From NCBI GenBank assembly GCA_049700835.1, contig JBNAUL010000002.1, forward strand, positions 1-64,000: DNA of 64,000 bases, written 5' to 3'. Source of the stretch: Candidatus Woesearchaeota archaeon. Lineage in GTDB: Archaea > Nanobdellota > Nanobdellia > Woesearchaeales > WAPY01. Position numbers and translations under genes: made by a program. The notes below the pieces were generated by a model. The model did not search any database. It was not told where the DNA came from and saw only the letters and a program-made list of their open reading frames with translations. This document shows, piece after piece, positions 9,514-32,200 of the stretch. Numbering within the stretch: the stretch's first letter is position 1; each line of letters starts with the position of its first letter.

Positions 9514-9577
9514 GAAAATATAAAAAAATGTAAAATTAGAATGTAATGCCAAATGCTGTTAAAACATTATTAAAACA

Positions 9578-9769: not shown

Positions 9770-9775
9770 GCAAGA

Positions 9776-11704: not shown

Positions 11705-11725
11705 GGAAAGCATAAGGAGAGCAGA

Positions 11726-12616
11726 ATGAGAATAGAACAAAGACATATATTTGCCATAATATCAGGAATCGTCTTATTGGTTTTAAGCATAATTTTGTTC
11801 AGAAAAACAATCTTTCTATCATTATTCATAACCCTCTCAATAATAATTTCGCTTTCTCAATTTTGGATTGATTTCCTAAACTACAACAAGACGCAAAAAG
11901 AGATAGAAGAGAATTTTCCAGAATTTGTTAGAAACTTTGTGAGCGGGGTAAAATCAGGCATGCCTGCTACAAAAGCAATAATCTTGGCTGCAAAAGAGGA
12001 TTATGAAGGACTAACTCCGTATGTAAAAAAATTGAAAAATCAATTGGAGTGGAACATTCCGTTTCACAAGGCATTGAAGAATTTTGCTGACTCAACAAAC
12101 AATGCGATAATAAGAAGGGCAATCTCAACAGTCATTGAAGCAGAGAAATCAGGGGGAAACCTTGTTTCTGTGCTGACAGCAGTAACTGATTCTTTGTTAA
12201 AAATAAAAAAGATAAAACAGGAGAGAAGGGCAGCAATGCATGCGCAGGTGCTCCAGAACTATGTAATCTTTTTTGTTTTTCTTGGAATAATAATAATCAT
12301 TCAAGTTTTTCTAATACCCTATTTGGAAAGGGTAGGTCAGAGTTCTTTTGGCACATTTGGAACAACAAGCCCTTTTAACATTCCAAAGGTGGTAAAAATA
12401 AATTTCAATTCAGTTCCTGATTTTGTAAATTCAATTTCTTTGTGGGCCATAAGCCTCAACGGAATATTTATGAGTTTGGTTTTGATACAAGGGCTTTTTG
12501 CAGGAATAGTGACTGGAATAATGACAGAAGGCGATTTCAGATATGGAATAAAACACTCAGTTATACTGATGATAATTTCCTTCGTGGTAATGAGCTTAGC
12601 TCAATCAATCATTTAA
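11726..12616 (+). CDS. Type II secretion system F / TadC-like platform protein
   Basis: IEENFPEFVRNFVSGVKSGMP…EAEKSGGNL…QGLFAGIVTG motifs; multiple TM helices. Confidence 0.9.
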   Translation: MRIEQRHIFAIISGIVLLVLSIILFRKTIFLSLFITLSIIISLSQFWIDFLNYNKTQKEIEENFPEFVRNFVSGVKSGMPATKAIILAAKEDYEGLTPYVKKLKNQLEWNIPFHKALKNFADSTNNAIIRRAISTVIEAEKSGGNLVSVLTAVTDSLLKIKKIKQERRAAMHAQVLQNYVIFFVFLGIIIIIQVFLIPYLERVGQSSFGTFGTTSPFNIPKVVKINFNSVPDFVNSISLWAISLNGIFMSLVLIQGLFAGIVTGIMTEGDFRYGIKHSVILMIISFVVMSLAQSII

Positions 12617-16431: not shown

Positions 16432-18537
16432 ATGTTTTTTCAAACAGAATACTATAGCCCAATGGACAGGGAATATTTCTCATCAGAAGAGAAGATAGAA
16501 CAGCCATTTGACATTCCTTCAATAAACCAAAATCAGAGTTCTCAGCCATTGATAAGAATGAGTGACATCGGGCAGACAGTTTCAGAAGGACCTCAACTTG
16601 GAACCTTAAAAGACCAGCTTGTTTTGGCAATAAGAAAAGGGGTTGGAAAAGTAGAATTGCAAACAACAATGGAAGGCGCTGGTTATCAGCCAGGAGGCGG
16701 CGGTGCAGAATCATACGGAGTTGAAGACAGGGATGAGATAAGAAAAATAGCAGAGATAAACCAGGTTGAATTGACAGGGGTTCATGCTCCTCCTCAAATC
16801 GCAAACCTTTCAGGTTTGGCAGAGAACAGGTTCAGCGATGAGTTGAGAGAAACACAAATCTCTGAGATAAAAAAGGCAATTGACTTTGCGGCAAGCGTTG
16901 GAGCCAAAGCAGTAACAATCCACACAGGAGAATTTCCAAGACCGATATGGGAAGCTGAGTGGAACAAAGAAGGAAAGTGGAAGAACGCATTCATGACTTA
17001 TGAAGAAGAACCAGAAAAGGCAGCGCATTACTTGGTTGATTCAAAAACAGGAAACATAATCACAGAGGTTGCAAGGAACATCGTTGTTTATGAACCAGTT
17101 TACAAGAGAGCAGAAAAAGACGGGATAAGCCCAAGTGGTAAGCAGATACACAGAGGGGATTACCTTGACATAAACGGAGAACCAACCCAAAATCCTGAGG
17201 ACAGAGTTCCAATAATGATAACAGATAACGATGTTGGAAAGGAAATTGAAGGTCAAAAAATAAATTCAGACATGGTTGGAAAATTCTTAGTGGTTCCAAG
17301 GGGATGGGACTATTTCAAAAGAGAAGCAGAGGAATTCAACAAAAGAAATCCTGGAAGAAAAATCACGCCAGAAGAGATGTTCTACAAAACAAGGTTGGAA
17401 TCAGAAATAAGCCAAATGAAGGGAATGACCTTATACTATCAGGCAGGTTATGAAGAAGCTTTAAAAACAAGAGCAAAGATACTTGATGCTATAAAATTTT
17501 ATGAGGACCTTGAGAAAAAAATACCAAAAGAAGATCTGTGGAAGATACAAGTAAGGAAGAACTACGGGGATTTGCTGCCAGCAGATGTTCAAAACCCAAC
17601 GCAATACTTAAAAGAAAAATTAACTGAAATTGACAGGCATTTGAAATGGACTCATGAAGCTTCTTCATCTTATGAAGCAAGAGCAAAGGAACTTGAGGAT
17701 GCTGCTAAAAGAATAAAACCTATTTCAGAATATGCCAAGGAAAAGAGCACTTACTCATTGGCAGAGTTGGGAATATATGCAATGCAGCAGAGCAAAAGGC
17801 CTGATGTTAAAAAAGACATCTTTATTTCAGCAGAACACATCTTTCCGCAGATGGGTTATGGAAGCCATCCTGAGGAATTGATACAGCTGGTCAAGGAATC
17901 AAGAAACAAAATGGCTGAACTGCTAACAAAAGAAAGAATACCAGACCCTTCTGGAAAAACAGATATTAATGGAAATCCTGTTTATATAAAAAACCCGTTT
18001 TACAAACCAGGTTTGAGCAAAGAAGAAGCAGAGAGAGAAGCTGAGAAACACATAAAAGCAACACTTGATACTCAGCACATTGGAATGTGGTACCGCTACT
18101 TTGTTCCAAAACCAGGAGAAACAGAAGAACAAAGGCAGAAGAGATTCAATGAATGGTATATGGACATGATTAAAAAGATGGAAGATGAAAAAATAATTGG
18201 CAACATACATTTAGTTGACGGTTTTGGAAGAGGGCACACGCATTTGCCTGCAGGGCAAGGGCTTATGCCTGTTAAAGATGCGATAGAATACTTAAAGAGC
18301 AAGGGTTACAAGGAAGCAATTGTCTCAGAAGGTTATGGCATGGGAGCTGATAATATAATAACAGAACCTTGGAGATTGTTTGGAGCAAGCATTTATGCTG
18401 TGAGCCCTGAGAGAGCTCGTTCTTGGACAGATGTTCACCAAAGCTATTTTAACAAGATGCAATCCCCATATTTTATTTTCGGCGCTTATGCTCCTTCTAA
18501 TGAATGGGTTTTGTGGAGTGAGGTTCCTTTTGAGTGA
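16432..18537 (+). CDS. Sugar-phosphate isomerase/epimerase (AP endonuclease 2) family TIM barrel with large insertion
   Basis: Metal-ligand motifs GVHAP, NLSG, IHTG, SAEH, TLDTQH, IHLVD, HLPAGQG and VSEG; roughly 290 aa are inserted between IHTG and SAEH. Confidence 0.8.
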   Translation: MFFQTEYYSPMDREYFSSEEKIEQPFDIPSINQNQSSQPLIRMSDIGQTVSEGPQLGTLKDQLVLAIRKGVGKVELQTTMEGAGYQPGGGGAESYGVEDRDEIRKIAEINQVELTGVHAPPQIANLSGLAENRFSDELRETQISEIKKAIDFAASVGAKAVTIHTGEFPRPIWEAEWNKEGKWKNAFMTYEEEPEKAAHYLVDSKTGNIITEVARNIVVYEPVYKRAEKDGISPSGKQIHRGDYLDINGEPTQNPEDRVPIMITDNDVGKEIEGQKINSDMVGKFLVVPRGWDYFKREAEEFNKRNPGRKITPEEMFYKTRLESEISQMKGMTLYYQAGYEEALKTRAKILDAIKFYEDLEKKIPKEDLWKIQVRKNYGDLLPADVQNPTQYLKEKLTEIDRHLKWTHEASSSYEARAKELEDAAKRIKPISEYAKEKSTYSLAELGIYAMQQSKRPDVKKDIFISAEHIFPQMGYGSHPEELIQLVKESRNKMAELLTKERIPDPSGKTDINGNPVYIKNPFYKPGLSKEEAEREAEKHIKATLDTQHIGMWYRYFVPKPGETEEQRQKRFNEWYMDMIKKMEDEKIIGNIHLVDGFGRGHTHLPAGQGLMPVKDAIEYLKSKGYKEAIVSEGYGMGADNIITEPWRLFGASIYAVSPERARSWTDVHQSYFNKMQSPYFIFGAYAPSNEWVLWSEVPFE

Positions 18538-18722: not shown

Positions 18723-18797
18723 TTTATATAAAAAAATCACTAAATAAGCATTAGCATTCGCGGAAAAATAAGAATTTTTTCAGATGCAAACGAATGC
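18723..18797 (+). promoter_or_regulatory. TATA box and inverted repeat upstream of the Lrp-led cluster
   Basis: TTTATATA at 18723-18730; GCATTCG (18754-18760) and CGAATGC (18791-18797) enclose GGAAAAAT…ATTTTTTC. Confidence 0.5.
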
Positions 18798-18823
18798 TTT
18801 CAGAAAAGAAAGAAGGTATTCAA

Positions 18824-19294
18824 ATGAAAAAAGAGGACTTGTTTATAATCTCAAATCTGAGAAGAGATGCAAGACAGCCATTAACAGCAATCTCAAAACA
18901 ACTTAGAATTCCTGTTTCAACATTGTATGAAAAGATAAGGGAGCTTGAGGGAAGCGTGATAAAAAAGTACACGGCAATACCAAACTACGAGAAATTGGGT
19001 TTCAATCTCAGGATAATTTACTTTTTGAGTTTTAAGGAGAAGCACGAAGAGAATGAGAAGTTAAGGGTTTTTCTTATCAATCATCACAATGTAAACTCTG
19101 TATTCAGGATAAGTGGTGATTATAATTTTGTTGTTGACTGCATTTTTAGGTCAGTTCAGGAGATGCACGATTTTGCAATGGAGATTGAACGGTTTGAGAT
19201 TGAAAAAAAGAAAATTTGCTATGTTATGAACGAATTGAAGGTGGAGAATTTTTTAATTGAACAAAACTATGTTGAAAAAATTTTGCAAAAATAA
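18824..19294 (+). CDS. Lrp/AsnC family transcriptional regulator
   Basis: IISNLRRDARQPLTAISKQLRIPVSTLYEKIREL HTH; RAM domain with VFRISGDYNFVV. Confidence 0.92.
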   Translation: MKKEDLFIISNLRRDARQPLTAISKQLRIPVSTLYEKIRELEGSVIKKYTAIPNYEKLGFNLRIIYFLSFKEKHEENEKLRVFLINHHNVNSVFRISGDYNFVVDCIFRSVQEMHDFAMEIERFEIEKKKICYVMNELKVENFLIEQNYVEKILQK

Positions 19295-19313
19295 AAACAA
19301 GGAGGCAAGAAAA

Positions 19314-19661
19314 ATGGATTCAAAAAACACCCTTGGAAAAAAAATCATGACCACTGCGTTGATAGTGACGATAGGTGGTTTTGGAGGGGCTATCTTTGAG
19401 GCAAAGACGCACTTGATTTCAAACAAAATTTTTGGAGGATACGAAAGAATAACGCAAAACCTTGAAGAGATTTGTCAAGGAACAAAGAACGCACTGGCCT
19501 ATAAGTTCTTTCAATACGCAGACGAAGACACAAAGAAAATAATAGTGGGAGAATACATAAAGGACAAAATTGAGGAAAAATACACAAGAGTAAAGGACTA
19601 CATAGGCGACAAGTGGAAGGATATAACTGATTACATAAAGGACTTTTTTGACAAGCAGTAA
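19314..19661 (+). CDS. Small single-TM hypothetical protein
   Basis: GGAGG SD; TTALIVTIGGFGGAIF hydrophobic segment; amphipathic C-terminus. Confidence 0.7.
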   Translation: MDSKNTLGKKIMTTALIVTIGGFGGAIFEAKTHLISNKIFGGYERITQNLEEICQGTKNALAYKFFQYADEDTKKIIVGEYIKDKIEEKYTRVKDYIGDKWKDITDYIKDFFDKQ

Positions 19662-19706
19662 ATCGCAATAAAAAAACAATCAAATAAAGAACAATCAGAG
19701 TATAAT

Positions 19707-20255
19707 ATGAAAACTCAAAAAAACATAAACGGATACAAGTTGGAGAAATTCGTTGAGGAGCTTTACAAGGAGTTAGGTTATTTGGATGTAAAGAGGAACA
19801 ACATCATAAAAAAGGGCAGTGAGTGGTATCAGATAGATCTTTCATACTTGAAGTTGGAAAACAATCTTATGAAAAGGATGCTCGTGGAAATTAAGTATAA
19901 AGACGATGAAAGAAAGGTTGAATTAGAAGAGGTCTCAAAATTTTGCAGCGTTTTGGAACTTATAGGGCATGATGCAAGAAATTCAGAGTTCGTAACAAAC
20001 TCATATTTTTCAGAAAGGGCAAAATTGTATGCAGAGAGAAAGGGCATAAGGATGATTGATGGAGCTTGTCTAAACGAACTTGCAATGAAAGCAGGAGAAA
20101 ATAATTGGGTGGAGAAGGCAATAGCGGGTTATTACAGGATTAAATCATTTTTAAGCAATCTCAAGCAAGGAAAGATTTTCAATGCCCTAAATTCTCTTTC
20201 GAGCCCACAGTACAAGGGTAATCTTGACGAGCAGATAAAAAAGGTTGTTTTTTGA
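19707..20255 (+). CDS. Mrr-like restriction endonuclease (PD-(D/E)XK)
   Basis: GYKLEKFVEELYKELGY…QIDL…LVEIKY…FVTNSYFS…GIRMIDG, the Mrr_cat pattern. Confidence 0.85.
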   Translation: MKTQKNINGYKLEKFVEELYKELGYLDVKRNNIIKKGSEWYQIDLSYLKLENNLMKRMLVEIKYKDDERKVELEEVSKFCSVLELIGHDARNSEFVTNSYFSERAKLYAERKGIRMIDGACLNELAMKAGENNWVEKAIAGYYRIKSFLSNLKQGKIFNALNSLSSPQYKGNLDEQIKKVVF

Positions 20256-20305
20256 TTGATTGTTTGATTGAAATTTAAAAAATGAAAATTTCAAAGGGGG
20301 TAAAA

Positions 20306-21343
20306 ATGGAGGAAAAACAAAAAATAGAATTTGGATTGGAATCAAAAGTAGAGGAAATTCCTGACATCGGGCAACTTAGGGAATGGCAGGAAACTCAGTT
20401 TTTTATAGAGGGAGCATACGACCCGAAGTCGCTCAAGGGAAAACTTAGAGAGATAAACAGGGCAATACTGACTGAATACTACGGCAAAATAAGCAATGAT
20501 TTTATAAGAAACATTGCAGTGAAATTCGCGCAGTTCAGAGGATGGGACTACTCTAAAGTATACGAGGCTGTAAACAAGGAAGTGGAAACATTGGTAGAAA
20601 GCGAAAACAGGAAATTGAAGCAAATGCAGTTGTACTATTATTCATTGAAGGACCAAATACATTACCAAAGGAAAGAGATAACGAAAAAGGGCCAGGATTT
20701 AAGAGTTTATAAGCAGAACACCCACTTGACAGAAGAGGAAATAAATGACATAGACAGAATATTGATGTACAAAAAGGGGGGAATTCAGGAGGAAAAGCTA
20801 GAACTGAAATTTCTTAGTCCTGATTTCCTGAATTACAGCGTTTCGCAGTTGATTGATGAGAAAGAAAAGAGATGCAGAATCGTTGATAACGCAGACATGA
20901 AAATAAGCCAAATAGAATATGAAATCAACAAGATTGGACAGAAAATCAGCGAACTTGAAGATTCTGCTAGGATGTGGGAGATAGCAATAAACAAGAAAAA
21001 AGAATTTTTGGTCAATGCGTATGCAATAAAATCAATTTATGCATCAAGAGAATTTGCAAAAGCGCTTGAAGGCATCATAAACATGGGAATAGACCATGAA
21101 AAGGTAGCTGAAAAAATAGAACAGCAATCAAAGATTATAAGCGGGCAATTGAGCGTCAGCGATTTGGCAAAAGAGGCAATACACCTGACTAATCCTAATT
21201 TAACCAGCGCAGAGGTGGTTGAATCCCATCAAGCATTAAGCAAAGAACTTGAAGCAGAAAGGAATAAGCAGAACAAGAACTCAGCAAAGTTATCCACAAG
21301 GGCAGAGGGTTATTTGGAAAAATACGCTTATTCAACATTTTAA
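20306..21343 (+). CDS. Coiled-coil protein, C-terminal half weakly PspA/IM30-like
   Basis: GGGGGT SD; long heptad helices; KISELED…KKKEFL…A…GID…AEKIEQQ resembles the PspA alpha2-alpha4 pattern. Confidence 0.6.
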   Translation: MEEKQKIEFGLESKVEEIPDIGQLREWQETQFFIEGAYDPKSLKGKLREINRAILTEYYGKISNDFIRNIAVKFAQFRGWDYSKVYEAVNKEVETLVESENRKLKQMQLYYYSLKDQIHYQRKEITKKGQDLRVYKQNTHLTEEEINDIDRILMYKKGGIQEEKLELKFLSPDFLNYSVSQLIDEKEKRCRIVDNADMKISQIEYEINKIGQKISELEDSARMWEIAINKKKEFLVNAYAIKSIYASREFAKALEGIINMGIDHEKVAEKIEQQSKIISGQLSVSDLAKEAIHLTNPNLTSAEVVESHQALSKELEAERNKQNKNSAKLSTRAEGYLEKYAYSTF

Positions 21344-21414
21344 ATCTGTTTTATTATTTTTATTTCTCTTTTTGATCTATTTAGATTTTCCTGAATTTAA
21401 AAAGAGGCAGCAGT

Positions 21415-22842
21415 ATGTCTGAGCTAAAAATAACAAACACGGAATTGAGAATAGCTGAGAAAGAACTTGAGACCAGGTTAGAGTTCAGTTATAACATAAA
21501 GGAAAAGATAAAGGGCGTGGCAAAGTATCAAGGAAAAGACGATTCAACATTGGACAAAATAACTTCATCAATCTATGGTTTTTTCTCGCTTATGCAAGCG
21601 TTGAGAACCAATTTGATTGATAGATCTTATCCAAAACTTAATTCTCTTGTTTATTCAATGTTTATAAGCGCTCAGTACGGCGAGAAAATATTGAACTATG
21701 GACAAAAGAATTTTTACGAACTAACCAACATATTTAGCCCTAACATAATAAACTTTGAGCAGGAATACCCTTATTTAAGAAACAATCTCATGGAATTATA
21801 CGCATGCAACATTGAATCAAGGAAGAATTATGACATAGAAATACTAACTCAGCAATTCTATGAATGGATAAAAAACAAGAGCATTTCAAAGAAGGAAACA
21901 TTGAATTCTGATTTTTCAATTTTAGAATCCCTTGTAATAAAAATAGAAGGAGTCAAAAAAACATTCAGTTTCAACGGAGGAACATCAGCAACAATAGTTT
22001 CTGAACATGAAAAATCTGCTTCATGGGAAGATTTTGGGGGCTATGAGGAGCAGGTTGAGTATTTTAAGCAGTTATGTTATCTGGCAGAGAATTATGAACA
22101 TGCTGCAAACCACATTCCAATTGAAAAACTCTTTCCAAGCGGAATACTTTTGGCAGGGCCTCCTGGAACAGGAAAAACAATGCTCGCAAAACTCTTCTGC
22201 CAAAAATCAAAAGCTCCATACACAATGCTTGGAGTGAGCGAGATAGGTTCAACCTATGTTTTTGGAGCAGCCATAAAATTGCAAAAAAAATTTGATGAGG
22301 CAGCCCAAAAAATAATAAAGGAAGGGCATAAAATCTCGATACTTTACATCGATGAATTGGACACGATTGCTCCTAAAAGAGGGCTTACTAACAACGAGGA
22401 AAAGGACAATTTAGTGGCAACTTTCAACTATAATATGGATGGGCACCTTAAAGTTCCTGGAGTTATTGTTATTGCATCCACAAACAGAATCGACATGATA
22501 GACCCAGCACTCTTGAGACCTGGAAGGTTTGAGAAGATAATTCATCTTTGGTATCCTGACAAGGAAACAGTCAAAAAAATATTCGCAGCCCAGATAAACT
22601 CAAGGAAAAAAATGGTAAAGGAACATCCTTACACGAATGGAATTGAAATTTCTGATTTTGTGGACAAATACTTCAATGAGGAGGTTAAAATGAGCGGCGC
22701 ATTCATAAATCAGCTCCTGAACGACACTGAAAAGAGGAAGTTGATGCAGCACTTGAAGGAAGGGAAGGATTTTATAATAACAATAAAAGATATTGAAGAA
22801 ACCTATAAAAATTATTTAAGCAATAAAAACATTGCAAGTTAA
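21415..22842 (+). CDS. Classical AAA+ ATPase (single module) with unrecognised N-terminal domain
   Basis: GILLAGPPGTGKT, LYIDELD, ASTNRIDMIDPALLRPGRF (second region of homology); pore loop STYV. Confidence 0.92.
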   Translation: MSELKITNTELRIAEKELETRLEFSYNIKEKIKGVAKYQGKDDSTLDKITSSIYGFFSLMQALRTNLIDRSYPKLNSLVYSMFISAQYGEKILNYGQKNFYELTNIFSPNIINFEQEYPYLRNNLMELYACNIESRKNYDIEILTQQFYEWIKNKSISKKETLNSDFSILESLVIKIEGVKKTFSFNGGTSATIVSEHEKSASWEDFGGYEEQVEYFKQLCYLAENYEHAANHIPIEKLFPSGILLAGPPGTGKTMLAKLFCQKSKAPYTMLGVSEIGSTYVFGAAIKLQKKFDEAAQKIIKEGHKISILYIDELDTIAPKRGLTNNEEKDNLVATFNYNMDGHLKVPGVIVIASTNRIDMIDPALLRPGRFEKIIHLWYPDKETVKKIFAAQINSRKKMVKEHPYTNGIEISDFVDKYFNEEVKMSGAFINQLLNDTEKRKLMQHLKEGKDFIITIKDIEETYKNYLSNKNIAS

Positions 22843-22855
22843 AACCAGGTTTAAA

Positions 22856-24763
22856 ATGGAAGATTTAGAATTGAGAATCATGGAAATTTGGAACAGAAAT
22901 ATGGAGAAAGTTGCAGGCATTGCAAAGAACAAGAACAATCTGCTTGCTGAATTTGAAAAATCTAAGAGGAGTGCTCTCACAGCAGGAGAAATAAACAGAT
23001 ACATAAAAATCAGGAACGAAATTAAAGAAACCATTAATGCAATTGAAGAACTTGCAGAAATAAAAGAGAGTACGCGCATAATTCCTTCATTTGAAACTGA
23101 CTACAACCTTTTAAAGGACCTAAAAGAAAAAGCAGAGGAAGCAAGAAGGCATATGCTGAATAAAATTAAAGAAAATTTTTATCGTTGCAATGAAGAGCTA
23201 AATAAGAATCTTAAAACCCAAAAATTTAAAGAAGCAAAAGAGCTCAGGAAGAAGATGAACTTGAATGCAGGTTTCTACAGGGCTCTGCTTAAACTTAATG
23301 ATGCTGAAGCAAAGGAAAAAAGAAAATCTATTTTTAAAAGGGAATCAAGAGCAGAAACAAAAGCAGAAAATTTTTTGATGAACTACTGCAATAACTTGAA
23401 AGAATACTATGCCATTCCAAGAAAAATAAGGGAAATCTCAAAGGATTATTTGAGCGTAAATTGGGATGAGAACAGCATAAATGTTTTAAGAGAGATTTAC
23501 GATGGCAATTTCGTCAGCAGATGGGGAATTGAGGACTTGCTTTCAAAAATCATAAGGTTGAATTTCATGGAATTTTTTCCAGAAGCAGAACGCCTGAAAA
23601 AGGAAATTTGGTTTTTTCTTCAAAAGCATTCGGACATAGTTCGACTAAAGACAGAACTTTTATCAAAACAGGAGCAGATGAAAAAGTCAATTCAAGAGAT
23701 CAGTGAGTTTTCAGAACCGAATGAACAGAAAATCATAAATTTGATTGAAGGCAAAAAAACAATTGTATGGGAAGCACAGAAGGAATTCTATTTTTTGGAT
23801 TACTTAAAGGATGAAGTTCAAAAATACGGAGAATTGAGGGTTTTGCTGGATTCAAAAATAAATGCAAAGATTAATGAATTCAAACTAAGAATTGAGGACG
23901 AACTGGCAAAAATAAAATCATACAAACTTAGTTTTCAAAGCATAGAAGCAGATGACAAAGAACTATCTGAAAAAATATCTCAATTCAGGAACCTTGAAAG
24001 AATTGCTTATATTATTAAGAGTAATTTTGGAACTGATATAAAAGGATTGAAAGAAGCAAATAAGGAGTTGAACGATTACCTGAACAAAATAATGACTGCT
24101 AAACAGAGGATTATGGAAATTTCAAAGGAGATGGAAAAAATAAAAATCTGTTTTGAAGAGCTCTTAAAATCAAAGGAAAAAACAGAAATAATAAAGTTCG
24201 AAAACGAGCTTGACATAAAGGAACAAGAGTATAAAAGATTGCGTAATGAACCTTATTTCATCTCAGCATCAGGCCAAGCATTGGAGCATATCTCTAGCAT
24301 AAGGCATTCTGTTCAAAAACTTAAATCCTTTATAGAAAATGAGGATAAAAACAAGAGCAACAAGAGCGAACTTGAAGCTCTCATAAAAGAATTTAGAAGG
24401 AATTCTTCAGTAAATAAGAATGAAAATGTTTCAAGGGTTTTAATAAATCCTTATCTCTACTTCAGCAGTTTGGGTCCTACACCAAATCCAGACCTATTTT
24501 CTATTAGAGAAGAGCTTTTAAATTTTAGCATAAAAAACATAGATGAAACAGTTGAAAAGGTCTATAATCTAATTAAGAACATGAAAGAACTTAGATTACA
24601 TTCAGATTGCAATTATTTCAATAGAATGGTTGAGGGCTACAAAACATTATTAAATTCTTATGCTTCGCGGATAGTGCTTGACGAGAACACAAAAGAAAAG
24701 TTCAGCAAAACTTTAAGCTTAATGAATCAAATTCTTGAAAGGGCAAGGAATGCAATAGAATAA
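22856..24763 (+). CDS. Large all-helical coiled-coil hypothetical protein
   Basis: About 635 aa, E/K/L/I-rich; starts 13 bp after the AAA stop codon. Confidence 0.75.
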   Translation: MEDLELRIMEIWNRNMEKVAGIAKNKNNLLAEFEKSKRSALTAGEINRYIKIRNEIKETINAIEELAEIKESTRIIPSFETDYNLLKDLKEKAEEARRHMLNKIKENFYRCNEELNKNLKTQKFKEAKELRKKMNLNAGFYRALLKLNDAEAKEKRKSIFKRESRAETKAENFLMNYCNNLKEYYAIPRKIREISKDYLSVNWDENSINVLREIYDGNFVSRWGIEDLLSKIIRLNFMEFFPEAERLKKEIWFFLQKHSDIVRLKTELLSKQEQMKKSIQEISEFSEPNEQKIINLIEGKKTIVWEAQKEFYFLDYLKDEVQKYGELRVLLDSKINAKINEFKLRIEDELAKIKSYKLSFQSIEADDKELSEKISQFRNLERIAYIIKSNFGTDIKGLKEANKELNDYLNKIMTAKQRIMEISKEMEKIKICFEELLKSKEKTEIIKFENELDIKEQEYKRLRNEPYFISASGQALEHISSIRHSVQKLKSFIENEDKNKSNKSELEALIKEFRRNSSVNKNENVSRVLINPYLYFSSLGPTPNPDLFSIREELLNFSIKNIDETVEKVYNLIKNMKELRLHSDCNYFNRMVEGYKTLLNSYASRIVLDENTKEKFSKTLSLMNQILERARNAIE

Positions 24764-24858
24764 AACCAAATAGAATCAAACCAAAAAAACAATTTTATTC
24801 TCTATTTAGTGATAAAAAAACAAAAAAATTTATAAATCTCGTGTTTTTATTCATTCTT

Positions 24859-27207
24859 ATGGACATAGGACAAAGAGAAGAATACGATAAGAAAATACTG
24901 ATGGAATGCATCAGCGATTTACTTAAAACAAGCAGAATGAAAGAAGAAGGAAAGCATCTGCCGTTAAAAAACATAAAGCAAAAAAATGGGATAGATATTG
25001 GAATTATAGGTTACGGAAAACTTGCAGAAAAAACCATCTCTTACTTGTCGCAACTAAATCACCTACAAATAGGAGAGCCAATAAATGAGATAATTGTTCT
25101 GACAACAGACGAAAAGTATTCTGACCTTGAAAAAAAGGAGAAAGAAATTTCAGCAGAGAACAAAATAAAGATAAGGCCTGTTCTTTACAAGAATGATTCA
25201 ATGTCAGAGTACAGAGATTTTTCAAAAATAAAAGAACTTCTAAAAGCAGACATGATTTTAGTTACTGCAGGGAATGACCCAAAAAATGCTATTTCAAGAG
25301 AGGAATGCATTAATGCAAATCTTCCATTGATAAAAGAAATTGGAAAAAATTTAATGGGTTACAATGGCTTGGTTTTAGTAGCAACGAACCCAGTTGATAT
25401 AATGACTTATGCATTGGCTTCTTCTTCAAAACTTCCATATGATCAAGTTGTTGGGCTGACACAGACAGACACGAACAGATTCAAGTACTACCTTTCAAAA
25501 TATTTTAACATTCCAATGGAAAACATTACTGCTTTTGTGATAGGAGCCCACAACGATACAATGGTTCCATTGCTTTCATATGTAAAAACAAATGGAATAA
25601 GCCTTTTGGATATAATCAGCAATGAAAAATCATTGAAGGATGTAAGAGACATGACAATGGATGTAAGAGACATGACAAGGGACTACGGGCTTTTTTTCAA
25701 AAAAGAAGGAAAAACTCCTATTGACAGCCCTGCAAAGTCGCTTGTTGATACAATAATTGCTGCAGTAAAAGGACTTGGATTGGAAGAAAACGAGATAGTT
25801 ACAACCTCACGATATCACAAAGAGGACGGGATTTTTATAGGAGATGTCACGCTTTTTAAGAATAAACTCCCTGGTTATGACTTATTTGGATTTATAAGAG
25901 TTCTTTTTGAAAAAGAGTATGACTTAAAATTGAGCAAAGAAGAACTCTTAAAATTCAAAAATTCAAAAGAATATGTTAAGAGAACAATCGAGGATTTAAT
26001 AAAACAGCATCATATAGAACCAAACATAACAGAGGTTACAGATCAGACAATAAAGGAAGGTTATGAAAAGTTAATCAGAGAATTGATTTCTGAAAATCAG
26101 GGAAAACAAAACTTAGAAATCATCGAATTGATTGGAGAAAGAAAAGAAAATGAATTTCCTTACAATTTGGATATCATACTCTCTTTTGTAAATGAGGCCT
26201 TGAGGATAAATACAAAAACAAGATCTTTAATACCATTTAAAGAAATCAAAGGAGCGCGCTCAATGAACATCACCCCAGACAAAAAAAAATTGGTTTTCGG
26301 ATGCAAGAATACGATAAGAATATACGATGCTGACACTTTCAAAGAGATTTTGGAAGTTTCTGTAATGCCTAAAATAGAAGAATCTTGCGAAAACAAAAAG
26401 GAAAAACTAGGATTAAACTCAGTTGAATTGATAAGTTTAGACCAAACCCACTATGTTATTTACGCAGCCCGTTCCAACTCAGGAATATTCCAATTTTCCA
26501 TAAAAGATAAAAATATTTTTGATGGAAAAGAGAAGAGGATTGCGCCAAATCAAGAAAAGATTTTGCAAAAAATTACTGAGAATGCAGATCATATTGGGCC
26601 TTTAAAATTCATTCAATGCAATAACAAGGAAAAATCAGAGAACCTTGGTATGCTCTATGCAGCAGTTGATTACATGATTTTGGAATGCGCTCTGAAAAAA
26701 AATCTTGAAACAATTTTGAATTATAAATATGCTACTAACTCATCAAGGGTAAGAAATTTCAAAATTAAAAACAATTATTTAGTCTCCCAAGATAGGGCAG
26801 ACAGAATTGTAGTTTACAACCTTGAATCGAAGAGAATGACAGGAAATTACTATTCAGACAACATTCAAAACATTGAAGCACTTAGTTACGGTTCAGGACT
26901 ATTGCTCGCTTTGAAAAGCACTGAAGGGATTGAACTCTTAAGCTTTGAAGAGCAAAATTATTTCAAAAAGCTTGGAAGTTTTGAACATCCTGAATGCAAT
27001 CTGCTCTTAAAGCTTGCCAAGAAAGGTAATAGTGCAATAATGCTTTTTGCTCTGTCAAACTCAATACTTGCAGCATATCTAATTTCAAAAGATTATTTTA
27101 GAAATCCAATATCTGAAAATAGAGTAAGTGCAAGCTACTTTAACCTGCCGATAGAGATAAACAATAAACTCTTTACAGATGCTGCAATCATTTTAAGAGA
27201 ATTCTAA
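24859..27207 (+). CDS. Lactate/malate dehydrogenase-family domain fused to a probable WD40-like beta-propeller
   Basis: IGIIGYG, ILVTAG…SREECINAN, VATNPVDIMTY, TDTNRF and VIGAHND; C-terminal beta repeats such as SMNITPDKKKLVFGCKNTIRIYDADT and LVSQDRADRIVVYNLES; own TTTATAAA at 24829. Confidence 0.8.
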   Translation: MDIGQREEYDKKILMECISDLLKTSRMKEEGKHLPLKNIKQKNGIDIGIIGYGKLAEKTISYLSQLNHLQIGEPINEIIVLTTDEKYSDLEKKEKEISAENKIKIRPVLYKNDSMSEYRDFSKIKELLKADMILVTAGNDPKNAISREECINANLPLIKEIGKNLMGYNGLVLVATNPVDIMTYALASSSKLPYDQVVGLTQTDTNRFKYYLSKYFNIPMENITAFVIGAHNDTMVPLLSYVKTNGISLLDIISNEKSLKDVRDMTMDVRDMTRDYGLFFKKEGKTPIDSPAKSLVDTIIAAVKGLGLEENEIVTTSRYHKEDGIFIGDVTLFKNKLPGYDLFGFIRVLFEKEYDLKLSKEELLKFKNSKEYVKRTIEDLIKQHHIEPNITEVTDQTIKEGYEKLIRELISENQGKQNLEIIELIGERKENEFPYNLDIILSFVNEALRINTKTRSLIPFKEIKGARSMNITPDKKKLVFGCKNTIRIYDADTFKEILEVSVMPKIEESCENKKEKLGLNSVELISLDQTHYVIYAARSNSGIFQFSIKDKNIFDGKEKRIAPNQEKILQKITENADHIGPLKFIQCNNKEKSENLGMLYAAVDYMILECALKKNLETILNYKYATNSSRVRNFKIKNNYLVSQDRADRIVVYNLESKRMTGNYYSDNIQNIEALSYGSGLLLALKSTEGIELLSFEEQNYFKKLGSFEHPECNLLLKLAKKGNSAIMLFALSNSILAAYLISKDYFRNPISENRVSASYFNLPIEINNKLFTDAAIILREF
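25638..25678 (+). repeat. In-frame 21-bp tandem duplication (DVRDMTM-DVRDMTR)
   Basis: GGATGTAAGAGACATGACAA occurs twice, 21 bp apart. Confidence 0.9.
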
Positions 27208-27305: not shown

Positions 27306-28295
27306 TTACTCTTTGATAATCTTAAGTTCATATTCCTTTTTGCCCATGCCGAATTTTTCAGCAGCACTTACCTGCTGCAGACCTGTTTTCTTGTTAAATT
27401 TTAAAAAAACATCCCCTTCATTGTTTTTTACAAGGTCATAGGATGCCTTATCTACTGCAACTCCATCTTTAGAGCACAAATAACCACAATCCCTTGCTAT
27501 TATTCCTTTAGGATCTTGCTCGCAATCACACTCTTTGGTAATTCTTTTTAAAATATTAATATAATAATATCTCTTGAATCTTGACTGCGCTGCAGAAGCT
27601 CCTTCTGCAAGAAGCACATCAAAATAATTAATCTTTGGTTTTATTGCTCCTGCAGGACAATTGTAAGCGCAATTTGAACACCCGTAGCACTCTTCAAATA
27701 TTGGCCTGCCATCAAATTTTATTCCGTTTATCGAACAACTTAGATAACAATTCTTTCATTTAGTGCAAAGTTCTTCTTTAAAAACAGGACTACCACCATC
27801 GTGGATCATTGATTTTGTTTTCTTTGTTAGAGCTCCCATCCCCAAGTTCTTAATGGCTCCTCCAAATCCAGAACAAGCATGACCCTTAAAATGGCTTATG
27901 ACCAAAACCCCTTCTGCGTCTGCAAGTTCTCTGCAAACCTCGTAAACCCTGTTTTCTCCTCTTACAGCAACAAATTCGCTGCTGCTTCTTACTTTTCCAA
28001 TCTTATCCCATCCTTTTCCTTCGTAACCATTATCTGTCCTTTAGGAGTTTTTCTTATGCTGTTGTAAGCAACAGAACTGTCAAAGAAAAAGAAATCAATA
28101 TTTAACTCTCTTAAAACATTAGTAAATGGTTTAATGTCTTCCGGTTTAAGAGCATATTCATTGTTTGGTTCTCCAAAATGAATTTTGACAGCAATTCTTT
28201 TGCAGTTTTTAAACTCTGATTTTATTTTTTTCTTCAGCAAATCAAGAAAGCTGCTTGAAAGTTCTCTTGAATAAATTACTTGAATAAATTACCTG
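27306..28295 (-). pseudogene. DUF362 / 4Fe-4S ferredoxin-domain protein pseudogene
   Basis: IAVKIHFGEP, ISHFKGH…GFGGAIKNLGMG, CxxCxxCxxxCP and ECDC…AVDKAS motifs. Broken by a frameshift near 28015, an in-frame TGA at 27756-27758 and a 13-bp duplication at the 5' end. Confidence 0.85.
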
Positions 28296-28309: not shown

Positions 28310-29134
28310 TCATGCCTTTTCATTTCTTTTCTCTTTTTTACCTAATTTTGTTAAACTCCACAAAAGCCAAAAGTATTTTCTGTAAGCGTCAGCCATCTTC
28401 TTGCTTTCTATCAGAATAACCAAAGGAACTTCATCCCAAATCCAAAATGAAACCTTGTTGTCATAAATTGTTGTTGTTGCAGGACTGTTGTACTCTTTTG
28501 GCAGATAATCTGCCTTTGTGTAAGGAAGCTTGTTAAGGTATGCTATTCTTTCTTTTGCGTTTTCATTGTATATGTGGATTTGGGTTATCCTTTTTGAAAT
28601 CCTTCTCTTATGATAATAATCTATGAAGTTTTTCATTCTCTTGCTTATGTCCTTTGGGCAACCAAATGTCAAAACAAAACCATTGTTCTCAACGCACCTT
28701 AGAATGTCCTCAGTCACTGCCTTTACTCCCTGAATTCCTTCCATTAGATGGGCAACATCCCTCTTCTCTGAAAATTTTTTCTTAAGAGAAAGCTCAGGGA
28801 TTATTTGATTAAGTTTTTCCTCTCTTTCTTTCATAACCTGCATTAAAGAAATTGGATCATTTGCTTCAAAATATTTTATCTTATTTTTTATTATGTAGCT
28901 TACAACTCCCTTTTCTATAAGCCTGTTCAATGCTTCATAAACATTTGTCCTGTGAACCTTGCTCTTATCTGCAATCTTTCCTGCTGTGGCAGAGCCGGTT
29001 TCCAGCAAACTGATATAAACTTTTATCTCATTCTTGCTAAAACCCAACTCCTCTAATACGCTTTCATACCTTTCCTTGTTTTCATCGTTGCATGAACTAT
29101 CAACTTCACATTCTTTGCTCATAACAGCATTCAT
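28310..29134 (-). CDS. TrmB family transcriptional regulator
   Basis: LEELGFSKNEIKVYISLL…VHRTNVYEALNRLIEKGVV HTH; C-terminal TIYDNKV effector domain. Confidence 0.9.
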   Translation of the reverse strand: MNAVMSKECEVDSSCNDENKERYESVLEELGFSKNEIKVYISLLETGSATAGKIADKSKVHRTNVYEALNRLIEKGVVSYIIKNKIKYFEANDPISLMQVMKEREEKLNQIIPELSLKKKFSEKRDVAHLMEGIQGVKAVTEDILRCVENNGFVLTFGCPKDISKRMKNFIDYYHKRRISKRITQIHIYNENAKERIAYLNKLPYTKADYLPKEYNSPATTTIYDNKVSFWIWDEVPLVILIESKKMADAYRKYFWLLWSLTKLGKKEKRNEKA

Positions 29135-29254
29135 AATGTTTGTTATTTATAAAATTTTTTATAAAAAACAAAATTTAAAAGCAAATAAAAAATTATGTTA
29201 TCACTTAACAGTAAGTTTTATATAGTAGTTGTTTCTCTGTTAATATAGGGCTAT

Positions 29255-32200
29255 ATGAGCGATATGAGCGAGGATTTATCTCTTCAAATAAAGAGAAAGA
29301 GGAGAATTGATTCTCTTAAATATAGGTACATTTACAATGAGGAAGTTTTTTTAGAAAGCGAAATTCTTGGAGAGGGAGTCTTGGGAATTGTTTTTAGAGG
29401 AAAATATGTGAGCAGGTTGCCAGATACTGTTCTAGAGCGGGATGTCGCTGTTAAGATTCTTGAGCCAAACTTGTGGGAAGACCCCAACGCCCTAAAAATG
29501 TTTTCTGAGGAGGCAAAAAAAAATTGGGATATAATGCAAAAGGTTAAGAGTAAAAATGTTGTTGAACCCTTGCTGGTAAACAATTTCTTCATTAAGGAGG
29601 ATTCAAAACTCATAAGCGTGCCTTTCATGGTTCTTCCATTGTACAAGGGCAGCGTTCTAAAAATAAAGGATTCCTTGACAAGCATGGAAAAATTAAAGTT
29701 TTTAGAAGATGTGGTAAATGGTTTGGCAGAGGTTTTAGAAAAAAGCAATTATTCTCATGGGGACTTGCATCCAGGAAACATATTCTTTGATGGAATTGAT
29801 TTTGCAATAGGAGATTTTGGATTTGCAAACATATCCAAATTGGCAGGAAGCCCTTACATAAAAAAGTCAGGAGAAAAGAGCGCGTATGTCACGACATCAA
29901 AAATGCAGCTGATAGAATTCTTTTTTCCAGACAAGAAGTTGAATTTTGACTACGAGAAAATTGATGTTTACAGTTTAGGAGCAAACTTCATCTACTTGTT
30001 TTTGGATGATGTATTTTCAAGAGAAAAAAGAGATACTTATTCAATAAATCAATTTATAAGAGAAGAAAAACCGGATGTCGGCTACAAAAAAATCAGAAAA
30101 GAATTCATGTCAAGGATGCCTTTCGAGCTTTCCTTCCTTGAGGAGATTATCGAAAAGAGTTTCAATCCTGACGAGAAAATGGTATTCAAAGATGCAATAG
30201 TGATGCGTTCACGCATTCAAAATCTGCTCAGAACATATGACATTGATTATAAAAAAAATTACTTTATAGAAAGATCGATTGAACAAACAGCAAAACAAAT
30301 AGATGAAAAAAGGAAATCTCTAAAAGAATCGTTCAAAAAAATCCTGTTAGGAATTTCAGTTGTAGCCCTTGTTTACGCTCCAATTACGCTTGGAATTTTA
30401 TATTATAAAAATAAACTAGAGAAAGAGCAAAATAACAAGACGCCAACGATTGAGAACTTGTTGGAAAATGATGACACGATATACTCAAATTATTGGGATT
30501 TCAACAAAAAGGTCAAGTTCGCTTTTTCAAGCTCAAGGTGGAATGAAATACTGCAAAAATACAATAAAAACTATGGAGAACTCTTCACCAAAAACCAGAG
30601 TTCAATTTTTGATATAATAACCAATTCTGTTTTGGATGATTGGGAAATAGGCCCTGATTACAATGAAAAAGACAATTCAACATTTCCTAATCCTGTCATG
30701 CTTTTAGAAGATTCAGACAATTATGTGGTATTCAAAATAGTCAAAAACAATGAGACAAAGTTTTTGGCATTAAATATCTCCAAAGAAAAGAAAATCTCAC
30801 TCGCAAAGATTGTAAATGAAATTTACGGCATAGAAGAAAAAACATCATATAATCAAACAAAACCAAACACTAATACCACGACAATGCCTCCAACAGAGAT
30901 AACTACTAATCCAAAAGAAACAAAACCAACAACCCCAACAAACACTACAACTCCTCAAACAACATTGGAGGACCAACTAAAGGAGTTTAACATTGTTGCA
31001 GAAAAGGAAATAAGGTGGTATTCAAAGTATTCAACTATACTTTACTCAGGATTCCTTGAACTATTGAACGAAAAGGAATTCACACGCATTTTATTGCAGG
31101 ACGACTTGAACAAAATCAGGAAATTGATTGACAATTCTTTAGTCAATGGAGAAATAGAAAAGGATTATTTAAACGGAGATTTTGGAAACAAGGAGGTTAT
31201 AAAAAACATAGGCGTTGATTATGAAAAGGGCTTTTTGGTAGTTCAGATAGGCACTGATAAATTATCACAAAAATTGTGCAGTTTTACAATAGGAACAAAA
31301 AACATAGCAGAGATGAATAATCTGCTCGTTTCAAAGAGTTATTATTTCAGGCCAATACTTGATTTGGCGAGCGGTTGGGAAAAGGGTTTTTTTTTAGGAA
31401 ATTATGATGCTGAATATTACATAACAAGAGACGATTTGTCTGCTATTTTGAGAAACAGTAATATTAATCTTGATGAACTATTTAATTCAAACAAACGATT
31501 AGTTTTAGAAAAGATTATGAATGGTTATGATTTTGACGGAGAAGCAAATAGCTTTATTTTGATGGGAAACAATCTCATTACAAATATAACAGGGCCTGAT
31601 TACAAAAAATACAACCTAACCCTTGCAATGTTGCCTGAAAATTCATTTTTACTGAAAAAAGCGATTGACGATTACAAAAATCCTGTTGTTGTTTCTCCGC
31701 AAAAATCAGAAATTCAAAAAACAATTGAAATGTTTGAGAGCTGCCAAGAATCAGTGCAGAATTATCCTAACTATGAGAGCGCGTTGGAGGTAATTCTCAA
31801 AGCAGACTTGGCTCCTTTAAAAAGCGTTCTTACAAATTATTATACGGATATAATAAGTAACAGCAAACTTGAAAGCATTTTGGACATTTTGATGGATTCA
31901 AATCAAGAAAATGGCGAATTAGAGTACTTAGTTGTAACTCAAGGTTCAAATAAGAACCTCCTGGTTTTTTTCAAGAACTCTGATAACAAACTCTATAAAG
32001 GATTTTTAAGTTTGGACAGCTCAACCTCAAACAATCTATACAATTATGCTATTGCCATCAATTATGTTGATTCAATAAAAAACTCGTGGGAGGATTATGA
32101 TTGGCTTTTAAATCCTCAGACAAGGGTTCAGGGAACAAAATGCTTGTCTTTCAAACCAAACAATAAAACAGTTTATATCAATGGTTATTTGTACAGGATG

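Follow-up and report, generated by a model that had tools for sequence, protein, structure and literature searches.

A fast-evolving AAA ATPase and helical-hairpin gene module of a DPANN order, tentatively read as a conflict or host-interface system

IetAS is a toxin-antitoxin system with anti-phage activity, made up of the AAA ATPase IetA and the subtilisin-like protease IetS. ESCRT-III/Vps4 and PspA/Vipp1 are membrane-remodeling helical-hairpin polymers, which in the ESCRT case are disassembled by a AAA ATPase. Mrr-effector defense systems include the C-terminal domain of ZorD, mREase_IV, and Lamassu with an Mrr effector. Here we compare with these systems a gene cluster found in the window, by which we mean the whole stretch of 64,000 nucleotides that was analyzed. 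The host of the cluster is a small hot-spring archaeon. The features discussed are as follows.

18723-18730, plus strand: TATA-box-like TTTATATA, upstream of the Lrp gene
18753-18760 and 18791-18798, plus strand: inverted repeat AGCATTCG / CGAATGCT, perfect, 8 nt, 30-nt spacer
18824-19294, plus strand: Lrp/AsnC-family transcription regulator (alternative start ATG at 18794, frame open)
19314-19661, plus strand: small bitopic membrane protein, 115 aa
19707-20255, plus strand: stand-alone Mrr_cat (PD-(D/E)xK) protein, 182 aa (PF04471)
20306-21343, plus strand: coiled-coil protein, 345 aa (alternative start at 20282, giving 353 aa)
21415-22842, plus strand: AAA ATPase, 475 aa (PF00004)
22856-24763, plus strand: long helical protein, 635 aa (alternative TTG start at 22832)
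24829-24836, plus strand: TATA-like TTTATAAA, located by eye in the printed sequence, 22 nt upstream of the start codon (ATG) for the LDH/MDH-like fusion protein
24859-27207, plus strand: LDH/MDH-like fusion protein (PF00056, PF02866)
28310-29134, minus strand: TrmB-family regulator (PF01978), convergent with the cluster
29255-32530, plus strand: 1091-aa protein with an N-terminal Ser/Thr kinase domain (PF00069 at 29357-30082)

A first-pass annotation had described six co-oriented genes, separated by gaps of 13 to 71 nt, behind a TATA box and an inverted repeat, with SD-like motifs and no methyltransferase, and this layout holds. Six plus-strand ORFs are present; with gene starts refined by SD-like motifs, the gaps are 19, 45, 50, 71, and 13 nt. 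Among these motifs, AAGGAGG precedes the membrane-protein gene, GGGGGT the coiled-coil gene, and AGAGG the AAA gene; no methyltransferase family was matched in the cluster or its neighbors. The TATA-like TTTATATA occurs 11 times in the window against 5.15 expected, with further copies 25 to 38 nt upstream of the ORF starts at 29255 and 34275. The AGCATTCG / CGAATGCT repeat follows the TATA box, precedes the Lrp start, and is a candidate operator; the Lrp genes of loci L015, L014, and L027 are also preceded by palindromes, of different sequence. The regulator itself matches PF01037 at 27 bits (cut-off 25), with helix-turn-helix and NCBIfam Lrp-type matches under their cut-offs, and homologues head the cluster in L014, L015, L027, L044, and L076. 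As the 71-nt spacer ahead of the AAA gene is T-rich, a single transcript for all six genes is only putative.

Twenty-six loci in other genomes, from several families, share the gene order, and this synteny shows that the grouping is not a chance one. The window cluster is the local copy of a fast-evolving multi-gene module of, as far as searched, one DPANN order; close homologues carry the source name "Candidatus Woesearchaeota." The module was found in 32 of the 401 genomes of the order. Within one genus it occurs in two of four genomes, and the two without it have completeness values of 97% and 90%. The cluster is present in each of the six genomes of the family, and in four (the window's genome, G003, G004, and G005) the same genes flank it, which points to vertical inheritance. 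A constant chromosomal site within the family is unusual for a mobile defense island and more typical of a cellular system. Outside the family, the flanking genes differ but the order still recurs across families, and module parts remain together after rearrangement in L016, L082, and L083.

The invariant core consists of one to three small signal-anchored membrane proteins, the hairpin protein, the AAA ATPase, and the large helical protein. In 19 of the 26 loci, a small protein with a hydrophobic segment at its N-terminus is encoded upstream, and in 25 the gene immediately before the AAA gene is on the same strand and encodes 324 to 426 aa. Where a same-strand gene follows the AAA gene (22 loci), it overlaps the AAA stop in 15 and starts no more than 9 nt from it in 19, these starts being first-start-codon calls that may be too early; in the window, the gene for the long helical protein starts a few bases past that stop. 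One locus lies amid 10 tandem paralogues with a common N-terminal motif, which is short and loose.

The cluster had been drawn to end at 24763, but the LDH/MDH-like fusion gene at 24859-27207 belongs to the conserved unit and is tied to the cluster in 12 of the 26 loci. TrmB homologues adjoin it in 11 of 26, Ser/Thr kinases in six other loci, and a PP2C phosphatase is often linked, so the unit is larger than first drawn and probably also takes in the TrmB gene (28310-29134) and the 1091-aa kinase gene (29255-32530). The LDH/MDH-like protein, the only Ldh_1_C match in the genome, has TNPVD, Arg, and Gly-x-His invariant among six homologues, and its C-terminal domain of about 400 aa reads like beta-propeller repeats. 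Accessory parts differ by lineage: an HNH fusion, an S8 subtilase, and a MoxR/VWA pair each occur once among the 26 loci. A P-loop/winged-helix-like ATPase is present in eight of them, once fused to HNH, and is absent from the window. Envelope genes, namely a type IV pilus-like cluster and a large surface protein, lie near the cluster; no further genes of defense systems, viruses, or mobile elements turned up next to it.

The classification of the ATPase as a classical AAA is upheld, with PF00004 matched at 106 bits and VAT and p97 as the closest solved relatives. Among seven homologues, Walker A and the residues Tyr281 (pore loop), Asn357 (sensor 1), and Arg371 do not vary, and the protein looks like a working unfoldase. 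CDC48/VAT/p97 and PAN are the closest sequence relatives of its ATPase module (VAT E 1.2e-58) and share its Walker, pore-loop, and sensor motifs; a CDC48 and a PAN are encoded in the genome as well. Unlike CDC48/VAT/p97, however, the cluster AAA has one AAA module and not two, and it falls far under the CDC48 and PAN family cut-offs (126.7 versus 802 and 126.6 versus 500). Its private helical N-domain (residues 1-200; model pLDDT 84.3, pTM 0.82) sets it apart from both families, structure comparison having returned no clear match. An unrooted tree places 21 cluster AAAs and the CDC48 D1/D2 and PAN domains of the genome on opposite sides of a branch supported at 95/99; the cluster side has long branches (median 0.99 versus 0.34 to 0.66 for CDC48 and PAN), and the tree tracks genus structure. 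Phage and plasmid records gave no match to the N-domain, and a scan of viral contigs gave a generic AAA match only.

The cluster had been taken not to be a named system, and PADLOC, Pfam, and NCBIfam models indeed name none, the PADLOC matches being domain-generic. IetA is the best defense-library match of the ATPase core (71.9 bits for the window, 68.8 to 69.7 bits for the L084 and L014 copies), and in L084 the genes run hairpin protein, AAA, S8 subtilase. The window AAA, however, scores 59.5 bits against the NCBIfam IteA model (cut-off 510), which general CDC48, PAN, and FtsH models outscore, and the window has no protease. To our knowledge, IetAS has no counterpart of the hairpin protein, the anchors, the long helical protein, or the private N-domain.

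Like ESCRT-III/Vps4 and PspA/Vipp1, the cluster encodes a helical-hairpin protein beside a single-module AAA and membrane anchors. In its 353-aa form, the coiled-coil protein is predicted to fold as an antiparallel hairpin (residues 90-166 and 187-254; pLDDT 79 to 94 across residues 100-230) whose tip carries a conserved ELKxLS loop. Its family is tiny, with eight matches among 1.84 billion representatives, and the protein shares 30% identity across genera within a single family, against 64% for a neighboring TIM-barrel gene; the long helical protein family, in turn, is marked by a conserved C-terminal domain of about 130 aa. The first-pass label "PspA-like" finds no specific support: the cluster hairpin protein, of about 340 aa, has no PspA_IM30 or Snf7 profile match, nor does any other cluster protein or the genome at large. 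The structural matches are not specific either, as Snf7 (Z 10.1), Vps24 (10.0), and PspA (9.6) match the hairpin no better than unrelated coiled coils, including the dynein stalk (Z 11.6) and SMC coiled coils, which match comparably or better. The AAA, moreover, groups with CDC48 and PAN and not with CdvC (63 bits, cut-off 650), and its N-domain has no clear MIT likeness, MITD1 (Z 4.5) being tied with many others. The 115-aa membrane protein has a basic N-terminus, a hydrophobic helix at residues 11-29, and then a charged helical tail. The small membrane proteins are probably signal-anchored or lipoprotein-like with the soluble part outside the cell, so a cytoplasmic version of the membrane-associated polymer first proposed is not indicated.

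The nuclease called Mrr-like does have the domain (PF04471, 55.3 bits), and E13, D44, and E61-x-K63 are kept and invariant in five homologues. Like Mrr and type IV restriction endonucleases, it combines an Mrr_cat domain with an intact D...ExK motif; AF1548 (1y88) is its closest solved structure (E 7e-4), and PDC-S02, ZorD, and mREase_IV give weak PADLOC matches. It differs in consisting of the catalytic domain and a short C-terminal tail of about 55 aa, without an N-terminal DNA-binding domain, and in having no helicase or SMC partner; PADLOC protein models of Lamassu, Zorya, and McrBC found no match. It is also optional within its own module, present in 10 of the 26 loci and outside the core, and in the other 16 no effector was recognizable besides the single HNH, subtilase, and MoxR/VWA cases. 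The proposal that the module gates a nuclease therefore fails as a general description and fits a sub-variant at most.

What the core does can be read in several ways. One possible though doubtful reading, which we rate nearly as likely as a conflict module, is a cellular machine specific to the lineage that remodels the envelope or membranes or forms a cytoskeletal scaffold. The hairpin protein would assemble at the membrane through the small anchors and the AAA would take the assembly apart, much as in ESCRT-III/Vps4, PspA, or SNARE/NSF but without homology, with kinases and PP2C setting the timing and the nuclease as a late add-on. Consistent with such a machine are the fixed, syntenic presence of the cluster in all six family genomes, a AAA tree that follows genus structure, the invariable grouping of anchors, hairpin, and AAA, the linkage to kinase and PP2C, the adjoining pilus-like and surface-protein genes, and a genome without a Snf7 or PspA match. 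The fold of the hairpin can be reconciled with Snf7, Vps24, and PspA (Z 9.6 to 10.1), but unrelated coiled coils match it equally or better, sequence similarity to ESCRT-III or PspA is absent, and the MIT likeness of the N-domain is not clear. The confinement of the module to 32 of 401 genomes and to half of one genus also speaks against it, two FtsZ-type genes in the genome serve division, and the nuclease, HNH, subtilase, and P-loop/winged-helix parts are unaccounted for.

DNA-related parts are likewise unaccounted for by a specialized protein quality-control or extraction system, which we consider unlikely. Here the AAA and coiled-coil adaptors would unfold or extract membrane or secreted proteins for turnover or export, the substrates being the small anchored proteins, encoded just upstream in 19 of 26 loci, or neighboring paralogue families. 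The classical unfoldase features and the pairing with a subtilase in one locus agree with this, and the motif of the 10 tandem paralogues could be a recognition tag, but its pattern is loose, most loci lack a protease, and the genome is already equipped with CDC48 and PAN. Less likely still is a system that takes up or degrades DNA, foreign or from the host, or that acts in segregation, in which SMC/Rad50-like hairpins, the P-loop/winged-helix ATPase, and nucleases would act on membrane-located DNA. The hairpin resembles SMC and Rad50 coiled coils, Mrr is found in 10 loci, and the P-loop ATPase is found in eight, with one HNH fusion; against this, no DNA-binding domain could be detected in the anchors, hairpin, AAA, or long helical protein, the P-loop protein is missing from the window, and a pore loop of the classical AAA type suggests that the substrate is a protein. 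That the genes are mere neighbors without a common function, their operon look a by-product of a small, densely packed genome, is highly improbable. The T-rich spacer and the TATA-like box of the MDH-like gene would suit it, but synteny already disfavors it, as the order recurs across families where flanking genes differ and the parts stay together despite rearrangement.

We tentatively favor, with well short of even confidence, a regulated conflict (anti-virus) or host-interface module in which the AAA remodels coiled-coil partners. Several observations argue against it: no PADLOC model names the system, 16 of 26 loci have no Mrr, the cluster is held by all six family genomes with flanking genes shared in four, no other defense, virus, or mobile-element genes were noted nearby, phage and plasmid records did not yield the N-domain, and the soluble part of the membrane proteins is probably outside the cell. 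In its favor are the swapping of effector-like parts (Mrr in 10 of 26 loci; an HNH fusion, an S8 subtilase, and a MoxR plus VWA pair in one each), the intact catalytic residues of Mrr, the patchy presence within one genus (two of four genomes), and the linkage to kinase and PP2C. The very long AAA branches and the low identity of the coiled-coil protein (30% versus 64% for the TIM-barrel) point the same way, as does IetA, at about 70 bits, as the nearest defense-library family of the ATPase core. In such a conflict or host-interface module, the N-domain of the AAA hexamer would engage the hairpin protein, the downstream helical protein, or both and thread them through the pore, and this threading would flip an envelope-linked complex from a stored to an active state or back. 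The conserved pairing of the core genes, the unfoldase look of the AAA, and the predicted hairpin of the coiled-coil protein speak for this picture. Phosphorylation and small-molecule-responsive regulators may fix the threshold, and the window copy would have an active nuclease among its switched outputs. The module would serve these archaea in conflict or at the host interface and not in housekeeping.

The gene cluster proves to be a genuine unit that is conserved and matches no catalogued system; its lasting element is a pairing of a helical-hairpin protein with an AAA ATPase that has a private N-domain, tightly followed by a long helical protein. ORF calling places six + strand ORFs at window 18794-24763, and with starts refined by SD-like motifs in the sequence the genes read as follows.

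Genes of the six-gene cluster (window coordinates, refined starts)
18824-19294, + strand, Lrp/AsnC regulator gene
19314-19661, + strand, gene for a 115-aa membrane protein
19707-20255, + strand, gene for a 182-aa Mrr_cat protein
20306-21343, + strand, gene for a 345-aa coiled-coil (hairpin) protein
21415-22842, + strand, gene for a 475-aa AAA ATPase
22856-24763, + strand, gene for a 635-aa long helical protein

The first-pass annotation had described six co-oriented genes with gaps of 13-71 bp behind a TATA box and an inverted repeat, and this layout holds: the gaps are 19, 45, 50, 71 and 13 nt, a perfect archaeal-type TATA octamer lies upstream of the Lrp gene at 18723-18730, and a perfect 8-nt inverted repeat stands between the octamer and the Lrp start. 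The remark that a methyltransferase is absent also stands, as the family profile search matched no such family in the cluster or its surroundings. Lrp genes in three related loci are likewise preceded by palindromes, of different sequence, and the 71 nt that separate the hairpin gene from the AAA gene (21344-21414) are rich in T. The six genes were correctly grouped, but the unit does not end at the long helical gene. It reaches the MDH-like fusion, an LDH/MDH-like domain protein at 24859-27207 whose gene has its own TATA-like box (24829-24836). Measured from the Lrp gene through this fusion, the module covers ~8.5 kb; TrmB and a kinase are probably also part of the unit. Between the fusion gene and TrmB are two short minus-strand ORFs (27306-27617 and 27989-28240; 103 and 83 aa) with no family match, which may be pieces of a single decayed gene. 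The 1091-aa protein encoded at 29255-32530 combines a Ser/Thr kinase domain at its N-terminus with a copper amine oxidase N-terminal-like domain at its C-terminal end, and a TTTATATA box is found by its gene at 29217-29224.

Evidence of conservation comes from comparison across the order. Single-sequence searches recovered relatives in 3 of 61, 7 of 301 and 5 of 401 genomes, with every match inside the same order, and neither the AAA N-domain (residues 1-200) nor the hairpin protein had relatives outside the order in the searches run. These narrow searches undercounted the family, missing two of its genomes, G004 and G005, until a flanking gene led there: tracing the TIM-barrel gene beside the cluster into two family genomes scored as having no match uncovered the whole cluster at the same site, without Mrr. 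The cluster is present in all six genomes of the family, and the same flanking genes surround it in four (the window's genome, G003, G004 and G005). A broader N-domain profile, built from 13 sequences, raised the count to 32 of 401 genomes from the order, which fall into 26 of 258 genera; this tally includes two genomes flagged as unpublished, G667 and G638, which are used only there, and is 30 of 399 without them. Presence varies inside one genus (two of four genomes). Word-based homologue searches returned near relatives only, with three matches each, a scan of genome contigs gave one locus, identical to that of genome G001, and the wider family alignments were too divergent for pattern scans.

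Annotating 26 related loci together with the window, using purpose-built profiles, shows that the gene order recurs in other genomes. An AAA_N ORF is present in 26 of the 27 loci, window included, the exception being L075 under the ORF caller used. Directly upstream of the AAA gene is a same-strand gene of 324-426 aa in 25 of 26 loci (all but L080), and 19 of 26 encode, upstream, a small protein whose N-terminus bears a hydrophobic segment. A same-strand downstream gene, found in 22 loci, overlaps the AAA stop in 15 of these and starts within 9 nt in 19, with the overlaps possibly overestimated since the caller takes the first start codon. Gene order is rearranged in three loci (L016, L082 and L083), where the parts remain together.

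Other components come and go, with counts that, like those above, are lower bounds because several contigs are incomplete. The first-pass annotation had the remodeled polymer gate a nuclease; with Mrr in 10 of 26 loci, the nuclease is an accessory. The LDH/MDH-like fusion is present in 12 of 26 loci, TrmB in 11, Lrp in 6 and PP2C in 3, and Ser/Thr kinases occur in 6 loci in addition to the window's 1091-aa kinase. A P-loop plus winged-helix-like ATPase is found in 8 of 26, one copy being a fragment and another, in L082 (7673-9490), fused to an HNH nuclease. One locus, L084 (7879-11524), carries the hairpin protein, the AAA and then an S8 subtilase directly after the AAA gene, and another, L085 (11816-15333), has a MoxR-type AAA_5 ATPase and a VWA protein inside the cluster. 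At a further locus, L079 (G270:C20; 1106-7394 and 16802-20000), the cluster is flanked by 10 tandem paralogues of 114-415 aa that have in common a DSVRxRIDxLL-type motif at the N-terminus. Looser versions appear at the N-termini of some cluster-adjacent proteins at other loci, and the motif could be a targeting tag or could be chance.

The ATPase was initially read as a classical AAA protein, and we agree. It has one AAA module (PF00004, 106 bits, residues 244-378), and its nearest solved structures are VAT (E 1.2e-58) and p97. It falls far below the level of each named family: TIGR01243, for the two-module CDC48/VAT architecture, reaches 126.7 bits with a cut-off of 802.65, NF003069 for PAN 126.6 against 500, the NCBIfam FtsH equivalog 119.9 against 600, CdvC (Vps4/CdvC) 63.1 against 650 and IteA (IetA) 59.5 against 510. 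The PADLOC IetA match (71.9 bits) is limited to the ATPase core, and a TRIP13 reading was dropped, the matches being generic to AAA proteins and taken as chance. PAN itself is encoded separately in the genome. When ATPase modules are placed in a tree, 21 cluster AAAs are divided by a 95/99-supported branch from the genome's own CDC48 D1, D2 and PAN; the tree omits 4 of 25 cluster AAAs, which lack a canonical Walker A pattern, and the branches of the cluster AAAs are much longer (median 0.99). Seven homologues show no variation in Walker A, a pore-loop Tyr, the sensor-1 Asn or an Arg in the Arg-finger region, which makes a protein-threading unfoldase the natural reading of the sequence.

The N-terminal 200 residues of this ATPase are confidently modeled by AlphaFold (pLDDT 84.3, pTM 0.82) as a helical bundle with three short strands. 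No clear structural relative of the model was found (best Foldseek E 0.63, best VIA Z 5.8), with the MIT domain of MITD1, aligned over 73 residues, at Z 4.5 and level with many other matches. Sequence searches found no relative of the domain in the PDB and no match in phage records, plasmid records or IMG/VR, and the sole match from a scan of viral contigs was to a generic AAA core at 26% identity. A search of the Protein Atlas, which contains no model of the domain, likewise found no match.

The hairpin protein has no family in Pfam, NCBIfam or PADLOC, and its own family is tiny, with an exhaustive profile search returning 8 proteins among 1.84 billion representatives. Its model is confident only at residues ~100-240, within a predicted long antiparallel hairpin of helices 90-166 and 187-254 whose tip bears a conserved ELKxLS motif. 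The description of this protein as PspA-like found no specific support. PspA_IM30 (PF04012) and Snf7 (PF03357) do not match it at E <= 0.1, and genome-wide searches with these models found nothing in the cluster, no Snf7 match in the genome and no PspA over cut-off. Fold matches are generic (dynein stalk Z 11.6, SMC ~10, Snf7 10.1, Vps24 10.0, PspA 9.6; Vipp1 Foldseek E 0.1-0.19), those to Snf7, Vps24, PspA and Vipp1 being tied with dynein stalk, SMC and chemoreceptors. With profile matches absent and fold matches generic, we do not adopt a PspA/ESCRT-III identity; weak HORMA matches (E 0.02-0.08) were treated as chance, and a Protein Atlas search returned nothing beyond coiled-coil look-alikes, all under 0.8. 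The hairpin protein is 30% identical between genera of one family, versus 64% for the TIM-barrel gene beside the cluster. What the loci have in common in the long helical protein is confined to a C-terminal domain of about 130 aa.

The remaining members are more readily recognized. The 182-aa protein has an Mrr_cat domain above the Pfam cut-off (PF04471, 55.3 bits versus 21), its E13, D44, E61 and K63 (D...ExK) are invariant in five homologues, and its nearest solved relative is AF1548. The Lrp protein has an AsnC-type ligand-binding domain (PF01037, 27 bits against a cut-off of 25) and an N-terminal HTH whose AsnC-type match, 17.1 bits, is under the cut-off of 27; NCBIfam Lrp-type models cover its whole length with scores under their equivalog cut-offs. 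The small membrane protein consists of a basic N-terminus and a single hydrophobic helix. In several counterparts, as read from their sequences, the hydrophobic stretch ends in a Cys in a lipobox-like context, which suggests that the soluble part lies outside the cell. The MDH-like fusion retains the catalytic Arg and His of LDH/MDH together with a TNPVD motif, and it is the genome's only Ldh_1_C match and only LDH/MDH homologue. It may therefore serve both as the only lactate/malate dehydrogenase of the cell and as a partner of the cluster.

The surroundings are those of an ordinary chromosome. The window's genome comprises 1.07 Mb in 4 contigs and is 98.7% complete, the closest homologues are recorded under the name "Candidatus Woesearchaeota archaeon," and the two DNA sequencing runs that contain the stretch are hot-spring metagenomes, with no RNA run among those listed. 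Neighbors of the cluster are ordinary chromosomal genes, including a type IV pilus-like ATPase and membrane-protein set, NFACT, a 701-aa TIM-barrel protein and TrmB, and also ScpA, eIF6, prefoldin, FtsY/SRP54-type genes and FtsZ. No virus, integrase or defense-island markers were seen around the cluster in the window, and comparison with PHROGs gave no specific match. A 1281-aa protein carrying a bacterial Ig-like domain and a set of type IV pilus/secretion type (a T2SSE ATPase plus two T2SSF membrane proteins) are encoded at 27-3872 and 7945-12616, and several small unannotated ORFs lie in between. The 701-aa protein (16432-18537) has a xylose-isomerase-like TIM barrel at its C-terminal end and is highly conserved (57-64% identity); its gene adjoins the cluster in four family genomes and not in loci of other families. 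Two tubulin/FtsZ-family genes are found in the genome, at window 60075-61145 and G000:C2:323341-323823.

What would be shared with known systems is a general logic. An AAA unfoldase working with partner proteins and swappable effectors is familiar from IetAS and ESCRT/PspA systems. IetA is the defense family nearest to the cluster AAA, and one relative, L084, has an S8 subtilase; the window's cluster, in contrast, contains no protease family and hence no adjacent IetS-type serine protease. The absence of a catalogued system had been left to a PADLOC check, and in PADLOC-DB 2.0.0 no system-specific model matched two or more components: the matches are domain generic, namely, IetA/TRIP13 for the AAA and ZorD, mREase_IV and PDC-S02 for Mrr, while the coiled-coil proteins, the membrane protein and the MDH-like fusion drew no match. 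Judged by these sequence comparisons, no family or system model names the module. Full-text literature searches, IetAS among their subjects, yielded no account of the cluster, and the passages of PMC6393860 matched by text search do not mention it.

How might such a unit work? Membrane anchors lie upstream of the core pairing, with regulators and signaling proteins around it. We infer that the AAA would take hold of one of its coiled-coil neighbors and thread it, and in doing so would switch the state of an envelope-linked complex; the output in this window would include an active nuclease. A function in conflict, as a defense or host-interface module, is the reading that we tentatively favor, at less than even odds. 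Arguing for it are the swapping of effector-like parts between loci, the varying presence within a genus, the very fast divergence of the coiled-coil protein relative to the TIM-barrel protein, the proximity to IetA, and the kinase and PP2C linked to the module. Arguing against it are the lack of a system-level PADLOC match, the many loci (most of them) without a recognizable effector, the vertical, syntenic conservation across the family, and the absence of a mobile or viral context.

That conservation could also be read as the mark of a lineage-specific envelope-remodeling machine, ESCRT-III/Vps4-like in its working but not a member of that family; we consider this only slightly less likely than the conflict reading. 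The remaining probability is shared among a specialized protein-extraction system, a DNA-handling system and unrelated neighbors, the last of which has to face the recurring gene order. A more specific picture, to which we give a low probability, is of a previously unrecognized machine private to one DPANN order, in which a dedicated AAA unfoldase, its N-domain of a new fold, would drive the cycle of an envelope-anchored helical-hairpin assembly under the control of Ser/Thr phosphorylation and a dehydrogenase-like sensor. Such a machine would remodel the surface or host contact by ESCRT-III/Vps4- or SNARE/NSF-like logic of independent origin, with nucleases or proteases added by some lineages for the processing of host or viral material.

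DPANN archaea are dependent on other cells and their genomes are tiny, and to our knowledge most of their lineage-specific genes are without an assigned function. Retention at the same site across the family and recurrence in many genera make it likely that the module matters for the biology of the archaea carrying it. Its core of four genes is a defined starting point, the N-domain, confidently modeled and without a clear structural relative, is an object for study, and the naturally occurring variants, some with nuclease, protease or kinase parts and some lacking them, allow comparison. Should the module prove to be a defense system, it would add an archaeal, unfoldase-centered type whose effectors can be exchanged; should it prove to be an envelope machine, it would inform how DPANN symbionts build or regulate the interface with their hosts.
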